Sequence record: NC_028925.1
Strand: one strand, 5' to 3'
DNA length: 64,000 nt
Origin: Escherichia phage vB_EcoM_VR25
The translations under genes and the position numbers were made by a program. The notes beneath the pieces were generated by a model that saw nothing but the letters and a program-made list of their open reading frames with translations, was not told where the DNA came from and did not search any database. This document shows positions 2,526-61,639 of the stretch, one piece after another; the stretch's first letter is position 1; each line of letters starts with the position of its first letter.

Positions 2526-4106
2526 ATGACACAAACTACAGGTGAAAAAGAAGGCGTATTTTACGGTTATTCTCTTTATGATTTGAATAAAGAAAAACTA
2601 ATAACTTTTGATGAATTACTTACAGGTGTTCAAGGAGAGCCCGGAGAAAATGGCGATATTGGACCAAAAGGCCCTATTGGTTTAACAGGTCCTCAAGGAC
2701 CGAAAGGTGATACCGGGTCAAAAGGTATTAAAGGTGATACCGGCCCTCAAGGTATTCAAGGGCCCGCTGGCCCACAAGGTCCTCAGGGAGAAAAGGGAGT
2801 CCAAGGTTTAGCTGGAGTCCAAGGCATTCAAGGACCAGTCGGCCACCAAGGAGTGAAAGGTGATACCGGCCCTCAAGGTATTCAAGGACCGAAAGGTGAT
2901 ACAGGTCCTCAAGGCCCACAAGGTGACAAAGGCGAAATGGGTCCGGTGGGTCCGGCTGGTCTAACATGGAAAGGAACATGGGACGCTGATGTAGAGTATT
3001 CTATAAATGAGGCTGTCGGATATGGTGGTTCTTTATATTTCGCCAAAACAAAAGTTCCTAATGGCGAAATACCAACACCGACTTCTAACTATTGGGGTGT
3101 TTTGGCTACCGAGGGTCCACAAGGTCCACAAGGTCAACAAGGTCTTAAAGGTGATACCGGTCCTCAAGGTATTCAAGGACCTGTAGGGCCTGTAGGGCAG
3201 CAGGGTATTCAGGGACCAAGAGGACTTCAAGGGTCAGAAGGTGAAATAGGACCGCGGGGTATTCAAGGGCTAAAAGGCGAAACTGGGCCCGCTGGTCCAC
3301 AGGGTATTCAAGGGCTAAAAGGCGAGGTGGGTGCTCAGGGTCCTTCTGGTTCTCCTGGACTTACAGGACCAGAAGGACCTCGTGGGTTAACAGGCGAAGC
3401 TGGAGCTCAAGGACCTCGTGGTGCTATAGGTCCTATCGGTTTAACAGGTCCTATCGGTTTAACGGGTCCTCAAGGTATTCAAGGTCCTAAAGGTGATACA
3501 GGTCCTCAAGGCTTACAAGGTCCTCAAGGCTTACGAGGTATTCAAGGAGCTCCTGGAGTAAAAGGAGAAGCGGGTGCACAAGGTCCTATCGGTTTAACAG
3601 GTCCGAAAGGTGATACCGGTCCTCAAGGTATTCAAGGACCGAAAGGTGATACAGGAGCACAAGGTCCTATTGGTTTAACTGGACCTAAAGGTGATACAGG
3701 CCCGAGCCCTTATACTGTTTATAATTATTCTAATGTTGCAACTGGTTATGCTGAAATGGTTATGCCTGGTGTGTCATCAAACACAGTATTTAGACTTCGT
3801 TCAGTTGGAACTAATATAGAATATAGTGTTCTAAGTAAAGGCGGAGCTAATAGATATGTAGATTGGCACTTTTCAATTCCAAGTGTTTCCGGCAATACAG
3901 TAAGTACTAATAGCGGAACTAATACATTAACTCCTACAGGTAATTTTACTATTGTGGCGACCGCTTATAATGGACTAAGGGGATTTACAATAACATTATG
4001 CGAGTGGGGTTCAAGAGCTATTGTTGATATCACTGTTTATCATCATGGGCGTTCGGGAGACACAACCAAAGCTGTGGCTATTCGTATGACTACTACAAAA
4101 TACTAA
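2526..4106 (+). CDS. collagen-like triple-helix repeat protein with globular C-terminal domain
   Basis: 526 aa; about 100 uninterrupted Gly-X-Y triplets in two blocks separated by a ~50-aa W/Y-rich non-collagen segment; ~130-aa non-repetitive C-terminal domain; AGGA-type RBS (ggagga) 6 nt upstream of ATG. Confidence 0.8.
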   Translation: MTQTTGEKEGVFYGYSLYDLNKEKLITFDELLTGVQGEPGENGDIGPKGPIGLTGPQGPKGDTGSKGIKGDTGPQGIQGPAGPQGPQGEKGVQGLAGVQGIQGPVGHQGVKGDTGPQGIQGPKGDTGPQGPQGDKGEMGPVGPAGLTWKGTWDADVEYSINEAVGYGGSLYFAKTKVPNGEIPTPTSNYWGVLATEGPQGPQGQQGLKGDTGPQGIQGPVGPVGQQGIQGPRGLQGSEGEIGPRGIQGLKGETGPAGPQGIQGLKGEVGAQGPSGSPGLTGPEGPRGLTGEAGAQGPRGAIGPIGLTGPIGLTGPQGIQGPKGDTGPQGLQGPQGLRGIQGAPGVKGEAGAQGPIGLTGPKGDTGPQGIQGPKGDTGAQGPIGLTGPKGDTGPSPYTVYNYSNVATGYAEMVMPGVSSNTVFRLRSVGTNIEYSVLSKGGANRYVDWHFSIPSVSGNTVSTNSGTNTLTPTGNFTIVATAYNGLRGFTITLCEWGSRAIVDITVYHHGRSGDTTKAVAIRMTTTKY

Positions 4107-23378: not shown

Positions 23379-23449
23379 TTTATTCTCCAGTTGTTTTCAT
23401 TTGTTGGTACAGGTCTATAATATCATAACCTGTACCAAAGTAAACTGTT

Positions 23450-26638: not shown

Positions 26639-26868
26639 TGAATGTACACTCGCTGCGCTTCAACCAGACCATCAGAACCCAATTTCAATTGAGTAAACTG
26701 GTCACCATCTTTTGGATTAATGACAATCATAAAACTACGTGCAGATTCCTGAATAACTTTCAGAGTCGCATCAGGAAATCGCTGTGATACATGGTTAATC
26801 ATCGCTTGAGCAAATGCCTTCACTTTTTCGTGGAACTCTTCAACAGTAATTGGGGTTTCGCTAAGCAT
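26635..26868 (-). CDS. hypothetical protein
   Basis: 77 aa ORF. Confidence 0.45.
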   Translation of the reverse strand: MLSETPITVEEFHEKVKAFAQAMINHVSQRFPDATLKVIQESARSFMIVINPKDGDQFTQLKLGSDGLVEAQRVYIQ

Positions 26869-27410
26869 CAGATTGTCTCCTGTTTTACTTGTTTAACGAT
26901 AGAAGCTTTTGTTATATCACCTTTGATAATATAACAATCTTCTGCAGTACCACGGCTTAACAGACGCTCTGCTTCGCCTTCCGCATATTCTTTTGACACA
27001 TGACGAGAGTTAATCTCAATCTTGCCATTTTTAACTACAAGCAATTTCCAAACTGATGCAAGTTTTACTGGCACAGGTTCAACTTCTGGCTTAACACCAA
27101 CTTCCGCCTGGATGAAATAATCAAATTCATCAGACAATGGACCAGCAGAAACAAACAGCGCACCATGATGCCTGTTCTGTGTGCCAGATATTTTTGGCAA
27201 ATCCACAAAATCATTTTCATCAATCAAACGGATTTCACAAACTTTTTTACCACCGCTGATGGCATCAGGTACAATTTTCACTTCAAACGGAGTCATACCG
27301 ATGTATCCAGCAATTTGGTAATTAGCTGCCCAGCCTCCGGCAATAAATTGTTTTTTAGCATTTTCAGACGTGAACTTGTAAAACTTACCTTCTTCAAAGA
27401 AATCACTCAT
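26868..27410 (-). CDS. hypothetical protein; N-terminal GKFY...AKKQFIAG motif shared with ORF 40269..40634
   Basis: 180 aa ORF; paralogous N-terminus noted by eye. Confidence 0.5.
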   Translation of the reverse strand: MSDFFEEGKFYKFTSENAKKQFIAGGWAANYQIAGYIGMTPFEVKIVPDAISGGKKVCEIRLIDENDFVDLPKISGTQNRHHGALFVSAGPLSDEFDYFIQAEVGVKPEVEPVPVKLASVWKLLVVKNGKIEINSRHVSKEYAEGEAERLLSRGTAEDCYIIKGDITKASIVKQVKQETI

Positions 27411-37406: not shown

Positions 37407-39065
<1,659 letters not shown>

Positions 39066-39069
<4 letters not shown>

Positions 39070-39407
39070 TTTAATTCCTTAACTGCCTTTTTGATGGCAG
39101 TAAAATCTTTGCGAATATCGAGAACCAATTTGTAAAGATGTTTAATTGTATCTGTATCAAAATATGATACCGCGCAACGTGATTGGCGAATATCTTCTAA
39201 TGAATACTTGCTTTCACTTGTGCCATATCCAATGATACCACTAATGCACTTGTCATTAAGCGTATACTTCTGGGGGACATCAATAATATTTTTAGGATAG
39301 ATGTAAAGGCTCCAATCAAATTTTTGTTCAAGCGTATTAACCTTAACTTCAAGAATCAGTTCAGGATGCGCATCATCTTTAGCAAAACAAGTGTATTCAG
39401 CAAGCAT
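39066..39407 (-). CDS. hypothetical protein
   Basis: Start chosen at MLAEYTCF within ORF 39066..39644; the N-terminal 78 aa of the listed ORF overlap the next gene in another frame and look spurious. Confidence 0.45.
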
Positions 39408-39417
39408 TATATTTTCC

Positions 39418-39657
39418 TCACGCTTTCTTAGCGATTTTCCAGTCAGCTTTAAATTGGTCAACATCAGAGTGGTGAATCCAGAAACCAGATGAGCTACCAT
39501 CTTCATAAAGAGGACAACCATCACACTCATCTTTCCAACCCATTGCACACAAAGTTTCTTCTGCTTTTTCCAGAGCTTCAGGATTGTTACCTTGGATTGT
39601 GAAGTACCATTTGCCTTTAACTTCTGAATCTTTGATGCTCTCACGTTTTAATTTCAT
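39418..39657 (-). CDS. hypothetical protein
   Basis: 79 aa ORF with Cys/Trp-rich composition. Confidence 0.45.
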   Translation of the reverse strand: MKLKRESIKDSEVKGKWYFTIQGNNPEALEKAEETLCAMGWKDECDGCPLYEDGSSSGFWIHHSDVDQFKADWKIAKKA

Positions 39658-39716
39658 TTTATTCTCCTCAAGTTGATAAGGCTATAGTATCACTACCATA
39701 GCCCTGTTGTAAACAT

Positions 39717-39962
39717 TTATTTTTGAATTAAGCCCATATAAAATTCAGCATCTTCAACATGCATACCATCGCAATACTCGTCAGTCATAAAACGAGTAAG
39801 GTCTTCAAGAGGACCTTGGACTTCAATTTGGATACTGAAGAATTGAGTATCTTTGATGTAAGTCATACTCAAAGAAGGATAACGATTACGGATAACTTCA
39901 TAAGTGTATTCAAAATCAACGATATCAATATTAACTTTAGCCATTTTATTTTCCTCACTCAT
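39717..39962 (-). CDS. hypothetical protein
   Basis: 81 aa ORF preceded by promoter cassette. Confidence 0.5.
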
Positions 39963-40012
39963 TAGTTGATAGGTCTATAGTATCTCAACCATAGACATTG
40001 TACACTACTTTT

Positions 40013-40279
40013 TTAAATTTTATCAAGCCATTTGCCAAGTTTGGTCATTTCTTTAGTAGCTTTTTCCAGACTTCTGAACTTGACTAACAAAGGATAAGTA
40101 TCTACACCCATAACTAAAGTGGTTACAAGACTATGCTCGCCTACAAGCCATAGAGAATACGTTTGAACATCAAGTCCGTAATTTCGGTCTTTATGAACAC
40201 GTACACCCATCACTTCAAACTGTTCGCTGGCTTTTTCTACTGCATCCAGGAAATCATCTTTAGTCATATTAAATTCCAA
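40013..40279 (-). CDS. hypothetical protein
   Basis: 88 aa ORF preceded by promoter cassette. Confidence 0.5.
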   Translation of the reverse strand: MEFNMTKDDFLDAVEKASEQFEVMGVRVHKDRNYGLDVQTYSLWLVGEHSLVTTLVMGVDTYPLLVKFRSLEKATKEMTKLGKWLDKI

Positions 40280-40634
40280 AGGTAGCTTTAATCAGGGCAA
40301 TGACTTCAGCAGCATTTTTGTGATTGACTTGCACATGAATGGTTTGCGTGTCAACAACAGGAGCATCACCATCAACTTCCAGGAAGTGGCGGAATTCCCA
40401 TTCAGCGAGTTCAAAGTACTCATCAGCATCATCCATACTATCCAAGATGGTACCATCTTTCATTTCAACTTTTTCAACAAAATAATCGCCATCAATAAAG
40501 CACATATCCAGGACTTTGAAGGAACTGCCATGCTGTCCCATCAGCTTGACCATGCGCGAATTGTCATCAGGACTACCAGCGATGAATTGTTTTTTGGCAG
40601 CAGGGTCTAATACGTAAAATTTACCAGTTTCCAT
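40269..40634 (-). CDS. hypothetical protein (paralog family with 40700..40957 and 26868..27410)
   Basis: 121 aa; shared motifs GKFY..AKKQFIAG and GSSFKVL. Confidence 0.5.
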   Translation of the reverse strand: METGKFYVLDPAAKKQFIAGSPDDNSRMVKLMGQHGSSFKVLDMCFIDGDYFVEKVEMKDGTILDSMDDADEYFELAEWEFRHFLEVDGDAPVVDTQTIHVQVNHKNAAEVIALIKATFGI

Positions 40635-40699
40635 TTTAATTTCCTCATATTCAATTGAGGGAACATACTATCATGTTCCCATTTGTTTGTATACTACTA

Positions 40700-40957
40700 T
40701 TATACTTCGCTAAAGAATTTAAATTCGCTATCCAGAATTTCAAAACAGTTCACACCAAAATCATCACTTGATGCGATTACACCGTTAGGAAATTCAACGC
40801 AATCAACAATCAGCGTATCCATAAACTTGTTAATGCTCAGGACTTTAAAGGAACCGCCATTCTTGTTAATCAGATTAACCATATCACAATTCTTTGCATC
40901 TTCGCGCTTGTATTCGTTAATCAGATTGTTCAGAGTGTAAGTTTTAAAAGTTTGCAT
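40700..40957 (-). CDS. hypothetical protein (paralog of 40269..40634)
   Basis: 85 aa; GGSFKVL…NGVI aligns with GSSFKVL…DGTI. Confidence 0.5.
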   Translation of the reverse strand: MQTFKTYTLNNLINEYKREDAKNCDMVNLINKNGGSFKVLSINKFMDTLIVDCVEFPNGVIASSDDFGVNCFEILDSEFKFFSEV

Positions 40958-41044
40958 TTCATATCCTTTAGTGTATCAGCAGTTGATGGAATCATTATGC
41001 CTTAGCTCAAAGGACTTGTACACTACTTTTTGAAAATAAAAAAG

Positions 41045-41060
41045 GGACCCGAAGGTCCCC
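41045..41060 (-). terminator. hairpin terminator after gene 32
   Basis: gggacc ttcg ggtccc followed by TTTTTTATTTT on minus strand. Confidence 0.7.
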
Positions 41061-41065
41061 TTATA

Positions 41066-41977
41066 TTAAAGGCCAGCCAGAAGGTCGTCAAGACCATCAT
41101 CAGAAGGCTCTGGAGTGCTTGGAGCAGTCGCAGTGCGTTCAGACTTAGCAGGTTTACTGGAAGTGAAGTCTTCCATATCTTTATCAAAATCGTCCAGGTC
41201 AGCGCCCAGTTTATCAGCTTGTGCAGCAGCTTTAGAAGCAGCACCGCCGAGAGCAGCTGTACCCATTACTTTAGAGAATTTCTTCTGATTCTCTTCAAGG
41301 GATTTAAACACCAGCAATTCGTTCAGGTCAGACATTTCGTCCCAAAGTTTTTTCTGGAATGCTTCATCATTGATGCCAGCGATTTCAGACTGGTTCATGA
41401 ATTTGGAATCATCGTAGTTTTTATAACCGGAAACCATTTTAGATTTCAGTACGAAGTTCGCACCTTCAAAAGGACAAGTTACATCAATAGCTGTTTCGCC
41501 CATGTCAACATCGACTTCAACCATCTGGTTGATTTTGTCCATGATTTTCTTACCGAAGCGGTATTTGAATACTTGGCCTTCGTTAGATGGAACAGCAGGG
41601 TCTTTAATGACCAGGATGTTAGCCCAGTAAGAAGTATTACGCTTCAGTTTACGATATTCGGATTCGTTTGTATTGTACAGGTCATTCTTATTCATGTACG
41701 CACACACAGGACAGTTTTCATAGTCGCCGTGAGTAGAAGTACAGTTTTCAATATACCATTGACCAGCATTTTTAAAGCCGTGGTTAACCAACTTAATGAA
41801 CGGAGATGGATTTTCTTCATTCTTAGAAGGCAGGAAACGAATAACCGCAGAGCCGACGCCATCAGTATCTTTCAGTTTCCATTCTTTTTTATCGTCAGAA
41901 GAGAAACCAGAACCACCTTTCAGAGCATTCAGGGAAGCGGCGAGGTCAGCTGGGTTTTTACGTTTAAACATAGACAT
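41066..41977 (-). CDS. 32: single-stranded DNA-binding protein gp32
   Basis: 303 aa; matches remembered T4 gp32 along whole length (MFKRK…[10 protein letters not shown]…LVNHGFK…YWANILV…[11 protein letters not shown]…acidic C-terminal tail). Confidence 0.95.
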
Positions 41978-42036
41978 AGTGATTTCCTTTGATTATTTGA
42001 TTTTAACAGTTGTTTTGATTACGTATTAATTATACT

Positions 42037-42705
42037 TCAGAGTGATTGAAGCGTTATTTGACAGTTTTTAACCGTCTCAATGAAAAGCTTACGAGCTTCA
42101 AGAGCATCTATATTTAAGATTTTCTTATAAGCATTTAGTTTGGTTGAATACTTGTCCCAAACCAAATCGTTAGTCTGTTCATCATGTTTATTTATTATAT
42201 GCAAAAATGAGTCAAGCAAACAAAACGTTTCAAATGAGATAACATTCGATTGGAGAAGTTTGAAAATATAACTCGTGTTCACTTTAGTATTATACTCGAA
42301 AATCTCTTGAAGCGATTTGACTTCAACTTTCTTACTAAAGTAATAGATGTTCTTTATATCATCTTCGTATACTTGTTTAATTCTTTTAAGTCTGCCGATG
42401 TATTCCCTATAAAATATCAGAGCATCGGCATCACTTATATCACCTATCCATGCATCCTGGTTCGCGACCAGGTTTGACATGAATATTAACGTTAATTCTT
42501 TGAGAGTATACTTATCGCTAAGCTTTTCGAAAAAATACTTATCGCGGCGTTTTTGATAAGCACTATCGGAGATTCGCATGGTCCAGTTATATTTGATAAT
42601 ATCATAACGACCCGAAAAATGCTGTTTGATGGATAAGTACAGTTGATATACTGATTTACCATTTATGTATCGGTTGTTATTTGGAGGCATGCGAATCGTA
42701 ATCAT
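42037..42705 (-). CDS. 59: gp59 helicase-loading protein
   Basis: 222 aa; size and position between 32 and 33. Confidence 0.8.
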   Translation of the reverse strand: MITIRMPPNNNRYINGKSVYQLYLSIKQHFSGRYDIIKYNWTMRISDSAYQKRRDKYFFEKLSDKYTLKELTLIFMSNLVANQDAWIGDISDADALIFYREYIGRLKRIKQVYEDDIKNIYYFSKKVEVKSLQEIFEYNTKVNTSYIFKLLQSNVISFETFCLLDSFLHIINKHDEQTNDLVWDKYSTKLNAYKKILNIDALEARKLFIETVKNCQITLQSL

Positions 42706-42995
42706 AACAAAAAGTCCAGCGTATTAGTTTTCTGTGTACGAGACATACTCGGACGAAGCAGGTTATCATCATATGCTTCGTTCATAATCTTATCAATGAT
42801 TCCCGCGGGAATGTATCGCGCAAAATTACCCTCAGGAACGCCACGTTCTTCTAACCAGGCAGTCGTAGCTTCCAGATAAGACATTTCAGTTGACTCAACC
42901 ATGGCTTCAATATCAAGCCCGTTTTGCTGCTTACTAATCGCCCCGGAAGGCGATTCAGTTTTCTGTGTATCAAAATTAACTAAAGAGGACATCAT
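42702..42995 (-). CDS. 33: gp33 late-transcription co-activator
   Basis: ORF 42702..43091 with probable internal start (~97 aa); position between 59 and dsbA. Confidence 0.55.
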   Translation of the reverse strand: MMSSLVNFDTQKTESPSGAISKQQNGLDIEAMVESTEMSYLEATTAWLEERGVPEGNFARYIPAGIIDKIMNEAYDDNLLRPSMSRTQKTNTLDFLL

Positions 42996-60185: not shown

Positions 60186-60221
60186 GGGGTCATTATACTC
60201 TGACCCCAAGAGTTTGTACAC
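60186..60221 (-). promoter_or_regulatory. early promoter cassette with stem-loop enclosing the -10 box (PeSL-like), paralog of 30646..30681
   Basis: Minus strand GTGTAC-N18-TATAAT; inverted repeat ggggtc/gacccc flanks the -10. Confidence 0.5.
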
Positions 60222-61563: not shown

Positions 61564-61639
61564 TTTATTTTCCAGTTGTTTAGTAACTCAGTACGGAATC
61601 ATTATACATAGACTCCATACTGATGTACACTATTTTTAA

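Follow-up and report, generated by a model that had tools for sequence, protein, structure and literature searches.

We analysed a stretch of 64,000 nucleotides (nt) from Escherichia phage vB_EcoM_VR25 (VR25; NC_028925.1), referred to below as the window, with attention to the interval between frd and gene 32 in this T4-like phage of the genus Gaprivervirus. With a probability of about 0.8, the interval is a hyperplastic region of the T4 type, which holds seven genuine small early genes on modules shuffled through promoter early stem-loop elements (PeSLs) and which includes a pair of Frd.2-family proteins. From family matches and flanking sequences, the seven open reading frames (ORFs) are read as the Frd.1, Frd.2 and Frd.3 set of T4, three modules common with phages VR7, JS98 and RB32, and a PeSL-bounded module carrying a second Frd.2-type ORF, named G. 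Comparison with relatives indicates that the presence of seven ORFs rather than three results from repeated PeSLs and short homologies at the junctions, through which recombination by the phage adds, removes and rearranges ORF modules.

Seven small genes between frd and gene 32

Genes at the locus run in the order 59, 32, the interval, frd and td, all on the minus strand. The interval is 97% identical to that of VR26 and 94% identical to that of VR7, and a 24-kb stretch shows 97.8% identity to VR7. Its seven minus-strand ORFs, lettered A to G from frd towards gene 32, encode 75, 113, 79, 75, 84, 121 and 85 amino acids (aa) and do not overlap one another, save for the ATGA shared by A and B. 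All seven exact protein sequences are already annotated as the consecutive products AVV67_gp188–gp194 of VR25, and the ORF starts concur with the annotations of VR7, VR26 and VR25. An earlier reading made from the letters alone (the sequence-only reading) had claimed seven small ORFs where T4 has about three. This was borne out, as T4 has exactly three ORFs in the interval, frd.1, frd.2 and frd.3; the range given for the array, 39066-40957, omits the 75-aa ORF A, though A had been counted. Pooled ratios of non-synonymous to synonymous polymorphism (pN/pS) against relatives were 0.03-0.30 for the seven ORFs, 0.17 for frd and 0.05 for gene 32, so that all seven evolve in the manner of coding genes. 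The products are small and soluble, with isoelectric points (pI) of 4.0-6.7.

Four of the ORFs belong to Frd families, judged against Pfam gathering thresholds of 29 bits for PF03197 (FRD2), 23.9 for PF17438 and 28.1 for PF05798. ORF G (40700-40957, 85 aa, gp188) is an Frd.2 paralog consisting of the N-terminal domain only, and matches PF03197 with 49 bits (E=1e-12) over profile positions 1-61 of 96. ORF F (40269-40634, 121 aa, gp189) is a full-length Frd.2 of the JS98 type, with a barrel, an acidic linker and a short C-terminal domain; it matches PF03197 with 112.7 bits (E=1.4e-32) over positions 1-95 of 96, also matches phrog_622, and is 33% identical to T4 Frd.2. The Frd.3 orthologue (39717-39944, 75 aa, gp191) gave 126.3 bits against PF05798 (E=6.6e-37) over all profile positions, 1-75 of 75, and the Frd.1 orthologue (39418-39657, 79 aa, gp192) gave 120.8 bits against the DUF5417 family PF17438 (E=2.9e-35); each is 72% identical to its T4 counterpart. 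Frd.3 starts at the ATG at 39944, which is preceded by a Shine-Dalgarno sequence (SD) and matches the annotations, and not at 39962. Frd.3 also aligns to positions 317-390 of the 391-position phrog_1764 profile, which indicates that this family includes much longer proteins, or fused gene calls, ending in an Frd.3-like segment.

The remaining three ORFs fall into PHROGs none of which has an assigned function, and these families are also found in VR7, JS98 and RB32. ORF E (40013-40267, 84 aa) belongs to phrog_4423 and is of the VR7 gp254 / JS98 ORF232c type, with a pN/pS of 0.07. ORF B (39066-39407, 113 aa, gp193) belongs to phrog_8592, its relatives being annotated as JS98 ORF228c-like, and ORF A (38842-39069, 75 aa, gp194) belongs to phrog_3183, its relatives being annotated as RB32 ORF231c-like. 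An alternative 192-aa reading of B from a GTG start was set aside, as it overlaps Frd.1 and is used in no annotation. No sequence relatives were found in the Protein Data Bank (PDB) for A, B, Frd.1, Frd.3, E or F, the six ORFs searched there, and none of the seven ORFs matched NCBIfam; E had no match in Pfam, PDB or NCBIfam. An Rfam scan of 38000-42800 returned nothing, and beyond the relationships described below no further paralogs were found, either within the array or in the rest of the window.

Promoter cassettes and predicted transcription units

Four intergenic cassettes on the early strand of the interval share one layout, namely an AT-rich stretch, a -35 element (T[GTA]TACA) and a -10 element (TAYWAT or CATAAT) of the sigma-70 type separated by a spacer of 16-18 nt, an ATCAACT-like box, an SD and the ATG. 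The cassette between gene 32 and G (40958-41030, minus strand) has -35 TGTACA at 41022-41017, a 17-nt spacer, -10 CATAAT at 40999-40994 and SD AAGGA, and its stem-loop is weak (-12.8 kcal/mol, z=-1.3). The PeSL between G and F (40635-40699, minus strand) has -35 TATACA at 40693, -10 TAGTAT ending at 40665 and SD GAGGAAA, with an 8-bp stem (GGGAACAT/ATGTTCCC, 40659-40680) that overlaps the -10 element and a fold of -12.8 kcal/mol (z=-2.5). Between E and Frd.3 (39945-40012, minus strand), -35 TGTACA at 40004 and -10 TACTAT ending at 39977 are accompanied by a stem-loop at 39973-39996 over the -10 element (-12.7 kcal/mol, z=-2.5). The PeSL between Frd.3 and Frd.1 (39658-39716, minus strand) has -35 TTTACA at 39713, -10 TACTAT ending at 39684, SD GGAG, and a 12-bp stem-loop at 39678-39705 overlapping the -10 element (-16.4 kcal/mol, z=-4.0). 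Thus a stem-loop overlaps the -10 element in three of the four cassettes, the one between gene 32 and G being the exception. The stem GGCTAT/ATAGCC of the Frd.3/Frd.1 element differs in a compensatory manner from GTCTAT/ATAGAC of the E/Frd.3 element. The gene 32/G cassette sits directly before frd.2 in VR7 and VR26, and a counterpart of the G/F element precedes the same Frd.2 type in VR20 and in the metagenome contigs L007-L014.

From their layout and position, we identify the interval cassettes as published PeSLs. The stem-loops of PeSLs lie most often between the -35 and -10 elements or overlap the -10 element, and serve in termination or attenuation (Arbiol et al. 2010, PMC2839356). Reporter assays and outward-facing PCR were used in the same study to examine promoter and terminator activity and the formation of mini-circles. 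In T4 and PST the promoter has the form TTTACW-N17-TAYWAT, and the stem-loops were placed upstream of the promoter (Comeau et al. 2014, PMC4122927). We considered the hairpins that enclose the -10 element as a new feature distinct from PeSLs, and ruled this out, since they represent the commonest published class (Arbiol et al. 2010, PMC2839356).

The sequence-only reading had given every ORF a promoter-like cassette of its own. This holds for G, F, Frd.3 and Frd.1 (four of seven) and fails for E, B and A, upstream of which no promoter was found. These three ORFs are arranged in the geometry of translational coupling. E starts 1 nt past the stop codon of F; B starts 10 nt past that of Frd.1, with its SD overlapping the stop; A overlaps B upstream and frd downstream through ATGA, as does td with frd. 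The four cassettes and three promoterless ORFs lead us to infer four transcription units, [G], [F-E], [Frd.3] and [Frd.1-B-A-frd-td]. Only early-type promoters were seen, and neither MotA-type middle promoters nor late promoters were found in the interval.

The expression scheme that is most likely, given this arrangement, is as follows. Each transcription unit would start at a PeSL, which combines an AT-rich stretch with an early promoter of the sigma-70 type, a stem-loop within or across the -10 element and an SD. Host RNA polymerase would fire the PeSL promoters immediately after infection, the stem-loops would attenuate read-through from upstream units, and ORFs lacking a promoter would be translated by coupling to the preceding ORF.

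Across the window, the promoter pattern occurred at 11 sites, all of them on the minus strand. At 6 of the 11 a perfect stem of 6 bp or more spanned the -10 element (combined shuffle p ~1e-6), with compensatory differences between copies. Outside the interval, PeSL-type -35 elements on the minus strand start at 61629, 61211, 60220, 54883, 30680, 27467, 23444 and 17084. The cassettes at 60220 and 30680 are near-identical save for compensatory stem changes (TGGGGTCA/TGACCCCA versus TGGGAGCA/TGCTCCCA), and in that at 23444 the -10 element is surrounded by a stem of 10 bp. In T4 (NC_000866.4), the 138-nt gap between frd.2 and frd.1 (~146005-146142) holds a PeSL with the stem AGGGTA/TACCCT over the -10 element, followed by an SD (GGAG) and a hydrophobic ORF of 22 codons, MFAPYIMAAVMLVCLYLLIKAC, which is missing from the feature table of the record and could encode a small membrane peptide.

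Exchange of modules among related genomes

Comparison with VR7 and VR26, which have six ORFs in the interval, delimited the G module as an insertion of about 330 bp (40648-40977, minus strand) that runs from the 5' untranslated region of G through its ORF and the G/F PeSL as far as the SD of F. Homology to VR7 and VR26 breaks just past the ATCAACT box of the cassette proximal to gene 32 and resumes at the SD of F. The junctions of the G module lie inside cassettes. Frd.3 has been relocated in VR20, where the gene is found between two Frd.2 copies.

The interval holds from 3 to 8 ORFs across the 10 relatives that span it entirely. The description of the array as expanded in the sequence-only reading is therefore apt in comparison with T4, but the size is not unusual for the locus. 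T4 has the order frd.3-frd.2-frd.1. SP18 is without frd.3 and has both a T4-type and a JS98-type Frd.2, annotated frd.2a/frd.2b. Eleven metagenome contigs encode an identical G protein, and six of these that span the whole interval (L007-L012) hold 3, 4, 6 or 8 ORFs, with three Frd.2 paralogs in L009 and L011. The largest array seen, with eight ORFs between 32 and frd, is in the 170.6-kb contig L009 (ENA ERZ23878415 k141_44718). G-type, JS98-type and T4-type Frd.2 occur together in one interval in the metagenome Gapriverviruses L009, L011 and L014. The G module showed 98-100% nucleotide identity in all carriers while the adjacent F showed 83-98%, which points to mosaicism by recombination.

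The Frd.2 pair and a stand-alone barrel

The sequence-only reading had proposed F and G as an internal paralog pair. Their similarity is significant, with 29 identities over 87 positions in BLASTP (33%, E=5e-10) and with both proteins above the gathering score of PF03197. F has the complete Frd.2 architecture of an N-terminal barrel, an acidic linker and a C-terminal segment (…TQTIHVQVNHKNAAEVIALIK…). G departs from it, ending at …EFKFFSEV, immediately before the linker and, in the family alignment, exactly at the boundary of the N-terminal domain. F and G are two members of the already described Frd.2 family and not local duplicates. G is distant from every Frd.2 subfamily (30-42% identity, with 34% to F) and without nucleotide similarity to F, so that, on these comparisons, the two are taken to be anciently diverged members of the family. 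The closest match to G in a phage genome, at 42%, was in EcS1, and its coding body had no nucleotide match in 50,697 phage records, a collection without the record of VR25 itself.

An exhaustive search of 1.84 billion representative proteins with the Frd.2 profile gave 52 matches, of which about 35 were full-length clusters of 112-131 aa, indicating that the family is small. The G type was the only 85-aa cluster among the 52, and a word-indexed protein search with G found a single cluster. In long proteins (P0067, P0071, P0083, P0089, P0096 and others, 865-4,421 aa) the profile matched 6-17 short stretches centred on an 'FKVL…VEKVEMKDGT' hairpin. These probably reflect repeat or composition similarity and not homology, since P0096 (865 aa) matches a wide range of unrelated Pfam families, in none of them with a stretch that passes on its own. 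Gene 252 of VR20 (87 aa, 'similar to Frd.2') was considered as a second N-terminal-only protein and rejected, as its 87 aa are in fact the C-terminal end of a T4-type Frd.2 that appears frameshifted. The N-terminal part of that gene lies in another frame within 2848-3230 (minus strand) of KP007360, through either a pseudogene or a sequencing error.

An AlphaFold2 model of G was confident (predicted local distance difference test score, pLDDT, 88.9; predicted template-modelling score, pTM, 0.79), with five strands and three helices. It shows the bent, five-stranded antiparallel beta-barrel that forms the N-terminal domain of the GoF/MotB.1/Frd.2 family, and G is thus modelled as the small SH3/LSm-like barrel of that domain alone. 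Foldseek found nothing significant for the model in the PDB. Among predicted viral structures the top match was the identical VR25 protein, followed by Frd.2-type proteins with template-modelling (TM) scores of 0.8-0.95, and T4 MotB.1 was recovered with E=1e-3. The nearest solved folds to the barrel were FeoA-like SH3 domains, as they also were in the study that described the GoF/MotB.1/Frd.2 LSm-like fold family with a tree of 210 sequences (Kim et al. 2025, PMC12152347).

A more distant family member is encoded between cd.2 and cd.3 by the minus-strand ORF 26868-27410 (180 aa, VR7ORF232c type, phrog_5804). The sequence-only reading had linked it to F through a GKFY…AKKQFIAG motif near the N-terminus. 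The link proved real and extends over the whole barrel: homology to the N-terminal domain of Frd.2 covers the first ~105 aa, with a profile-profile (hhalign) probability of 91.9% (E=6.9e-7, 89 columns) and a pairwise E=1e-4 against F. The N-terminus also matched the goF PHROG (3.3e-8) and cross-matched the Frd.2 PHROG, and among 390 window ORFs the protein and F were each other's best non-self hidden Markov model matches. Its structure model, built from a shallow alignment, reached a pLDDT of 46 and was unusable, which leaves hhalign as the basis of the homology. On that basis the protein is read as this barrel joined to a C-terminal part that is different and larger.

Possible functions of the barrel

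T4 frd.2 was the single fitness gene without an assigned function in a genome-wide CRISPRi-ART knock-down screen (PMC11879866), while an amber mutation in frd.2 leaves plating on laboratory strains normal (PMC12152347). The mRNA of frd.3 is among the abundant T4 RNAs capped with nicotinamide adenine dinucleotide (bioRxiv 10.1101/2024.04.04.588121). As to the related proteins, GoF(D25Y) stabilises a reporter RNA and alone had an effect (PMC12152347), and goF mutations have historically been found to suppress a host rho defect (cited in PMC12152347).

We tentatively suggest that the barrel may bind a macromolecular partner and may in this way tune early gene expression. The partner could be RNA, which has been proposed for GoF, or a protein, for instance RNA polymerase. 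G could compete or pair with full-length family members. A more specific version, which we regard as a long shot, is that G, as a stand-alone Frd.2/GoF/MotB.1 barrel on a PeSL-bounded module, might pair or compete with F, the cd.2-cd.3 ORF product, GoF and MotB.1 and re-tune the early process in which they act. If true, Gapriverviruses would provide a naturally occurring domain dissection of the one T4 'fitness' gene without an assigned function.

Opposing evidence and alternative explanations

Several points weigh against the account given above. Modules A, B and E move although no PeSLs flank them, which means that PeSL recombination does not explain all of the shuffling and that other short homologies must contribute. 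The stem-loop of the gene 32/G cassette is the weak one, and promoter and attenuator activity in VR25 is deduced from sequence together with PeSL experiments in RB49 and phi1. With regard to function, wild-type GoF and MotB.1 were without effect in the reporter assay (PMC12152347), and the acidity of F and G (pI ~4.5) disfavours RNA binding.

This acidity leans slightly toward protein binding. An alternative is that the Frd.2-type barrel does not bind RNA in the manner of LSm proteins but is a protein-binding module of the Tudor/CarD/UvrD-CTD kind, which might contact RNA polymerase. The suppression of the host rho defect by goF mutations fits this proposal, and the stabilisation of reporter RNA by GoF(D25Y) speaks against it. 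The modelled fold does not discriminate between an LSm-like RNA binder and a protein binder of the Tudor/CarD/SH3 kind, as the scores are fold-level only and leave the SH3, Tudor, KOW and LSm classes inseparable. Chains of the Dcp1-Dcp2-Edc3 decapping complex, which we take to be Edc3 LSm domains, were among the weak Foldseek matches and count against an exclusively protein-binding role. On balance we consider such a role unlikely.

The sequence-only reading had suggested host-takeover or anti-defence functions, and anti-defence genes are found among the small early genes of hyperplastic regions in T4. The array might be an anti-defence or host-takeover island, with members that inhibit particular immunity systems or other factors of the host and with a variability that reflects an arms race, an explanation compatible with modular shuffling. 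The strong variation in presence and absence among close relatives, the score of T4 frd.2 as a fitness gene, and the argument in the PeSL papers that hyperplastic regions are adaptive all agree with it. However, none of the seven ORFs matched a characterised inhibitor in Pfam, PHROGs, NCBIfam or PDB, selection on them is ordinary and purifying with no sign of diversification, and plating of the frd.2 amber mutant is normal on laboratory strains. Our results neither support nor refute this explanation, which appears improbable to about the same degree as the preceding one.

We strongly doubt that G is a truncated Frd.2 pseudogene in decay, without a function of its own. G does lack the C-terminal domain, and decay is seen at the locus in VR20, where the annotation of the frameshifted T4-type copy covers no more than the last 87 aa. 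However, G terminates precisely at a domain boundary, has a predicted promoter and SD of its own, and folds into a compact model with the high confidence given above. The protein is 99-100% conserved over 12 contigs and VR25, with eight synonymous substitutions against one non-synonymous, although a selection test on just nine substitutions leaves some room for decay. Finally, a recent tandem duplication in the VR25 genome, with later truncation of one copy in a locally expanding family, is very improbable and largely refuted, for although F and G are adjacent, in the same orientation and of the same Pfam family, G is no closer to F than to other Frd.2 subfamilies and closest to that of EcS1, has no nucleotide similarity to F or to any phage record searched, and adjoins as an identical module F alleles that differ by up to 17%, and relatives have other mixes of paralogs (T4-type with JS98-type in SP18, all three types in L009).

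Flanking genes

The downstream anchor of the interval is frd (38264-38845, minus strand, 193 aa), which encodes dihydrofolate reductase and whose translation is coupled to that of A. The longest possible reading of frd begins with the ATG at 38857 (197 aa), a start that is probably unused; the ATG at 38845 makes the ATGA overlap with the stop of A and yields the 193-aa product annotated in VR7 and VR26. The td gene (37407-38267) is unbroken in VR25 and encodes 286 aa. In several contigs with identical G (L007, L010 and L012 were compared) it is split into parts of 183 and 104 aa, and in L007 a GIY-YIG/I-TevI-like ORF lies between the halves, in the manner of the td intron of T4.

At the other end, a terminator scan located the intrinsic terminator of gene 32 at 41041-41062 (minus strand), with the stem-loop GGGGACC-TTCG-GGTCCC followed by a T run. 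Its fold is -14.4 kcal/mol (z=-5.4), and it is conserved in VR7, VR26, SP18 and VR20. Gene 59 lies directly upstream of gene 32 in VR25 (41978-42036). This 59/32 junction is occupied in VR7 and SP18 by the gene of a SegG-like homing endonuclease of the GIY-YIG type, and in L008 and L011 by an unannotated ORF of 212-229 aa.

Relation to previous work

Much of this is already known. The genes are annotated in VR25, their families are in Pfam and PHROGs, the cassettes and their shuffling were published in 2010 and 2014, and the link between Frd.2, GoF and MotB.1 in 2025. Mildly new are G as a stand-alone barrel on a PeSL-bounded module and the ORF between cd.2 and cd.3 with the same barrel. As a discovery the locus matters little, being an ordinary case of a hyperplastic region, PeSLs, the Frd.1, Frd.2 and Frd.3 families and the barrel family. 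Its value is as a clean worked example of modular shuffling, in which one ORF and one PeSL are inserted relative to genomes that are 94-97% identical, and in the protein variants it provides: G, which is the barrel alone, and the product of ORF 26868-27410, in which the barrel has another C-terminal part, could be useful for finding the role of Frd.2.

Comparison with known systems

The interval cassettes resemble the published PeSLs (PMC2839356, PMC4122927) in their layout of an AT-rich stretch, -35 and -10 elements of the TTTACW N17 TAYWAT type, a stem-loop at the -10 element, SD and ATG. They are likewise intergenic within a hyperplastic region, flank small uncharacterised ORFs, and are the sites at which the junctions of an indel between near-identical genomes are found. 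In contrast to the present case, PeSLs were described in RB49/phi1, PST/T4 and nt-1/KVP40 and not in Gapriverviruses; moreover, three of the seven ORFs of VR25 (E, B and A) vary between genomes although they are not flanked by PeSLs.

With the GoF/MotB.1/Frd.2 family (PMC12152347), the VR25 proteins have in common the small five-stranded N-terminal beta-barrel, with FeoA-like SH3 domains as nearest folds and MotB.1 among the structures recovered, and in F the barrel is followed by a linker and a C-terminal domain, as published for the family. G differs in being without linker and C-terminal domain, and ORF 26868-27410 in the different and larger part that follows its barrel.

Compared with T4, the interval has orthologues of the Frd.1, Frd.2 and Frd.3 families, and both their strand and the anchor genes on either side are the same. 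The order differs, being 32-frd.3-frd.2-frd.1-frd in T4 and 32-G-F-E-frd.3-frd.1-B-A-frd in VR25, which has four additional ORFs. The Frd.2 type differs as well, F being of the JS98 type with 33% identity to T4 Frd.2, and the T4-type copy is absent from VR25. The nearest precedent for the pair is the Gaprivervirus SP18 (GQ981382), in which tandem Frd.2 paralogs are publicly named frd.2a/frd.2b. The SP18 pair consists of a T4-type and a JS98-type protein, both full length, whereas that of VR25 combines the N-terminal-only G type with the JS98 type.

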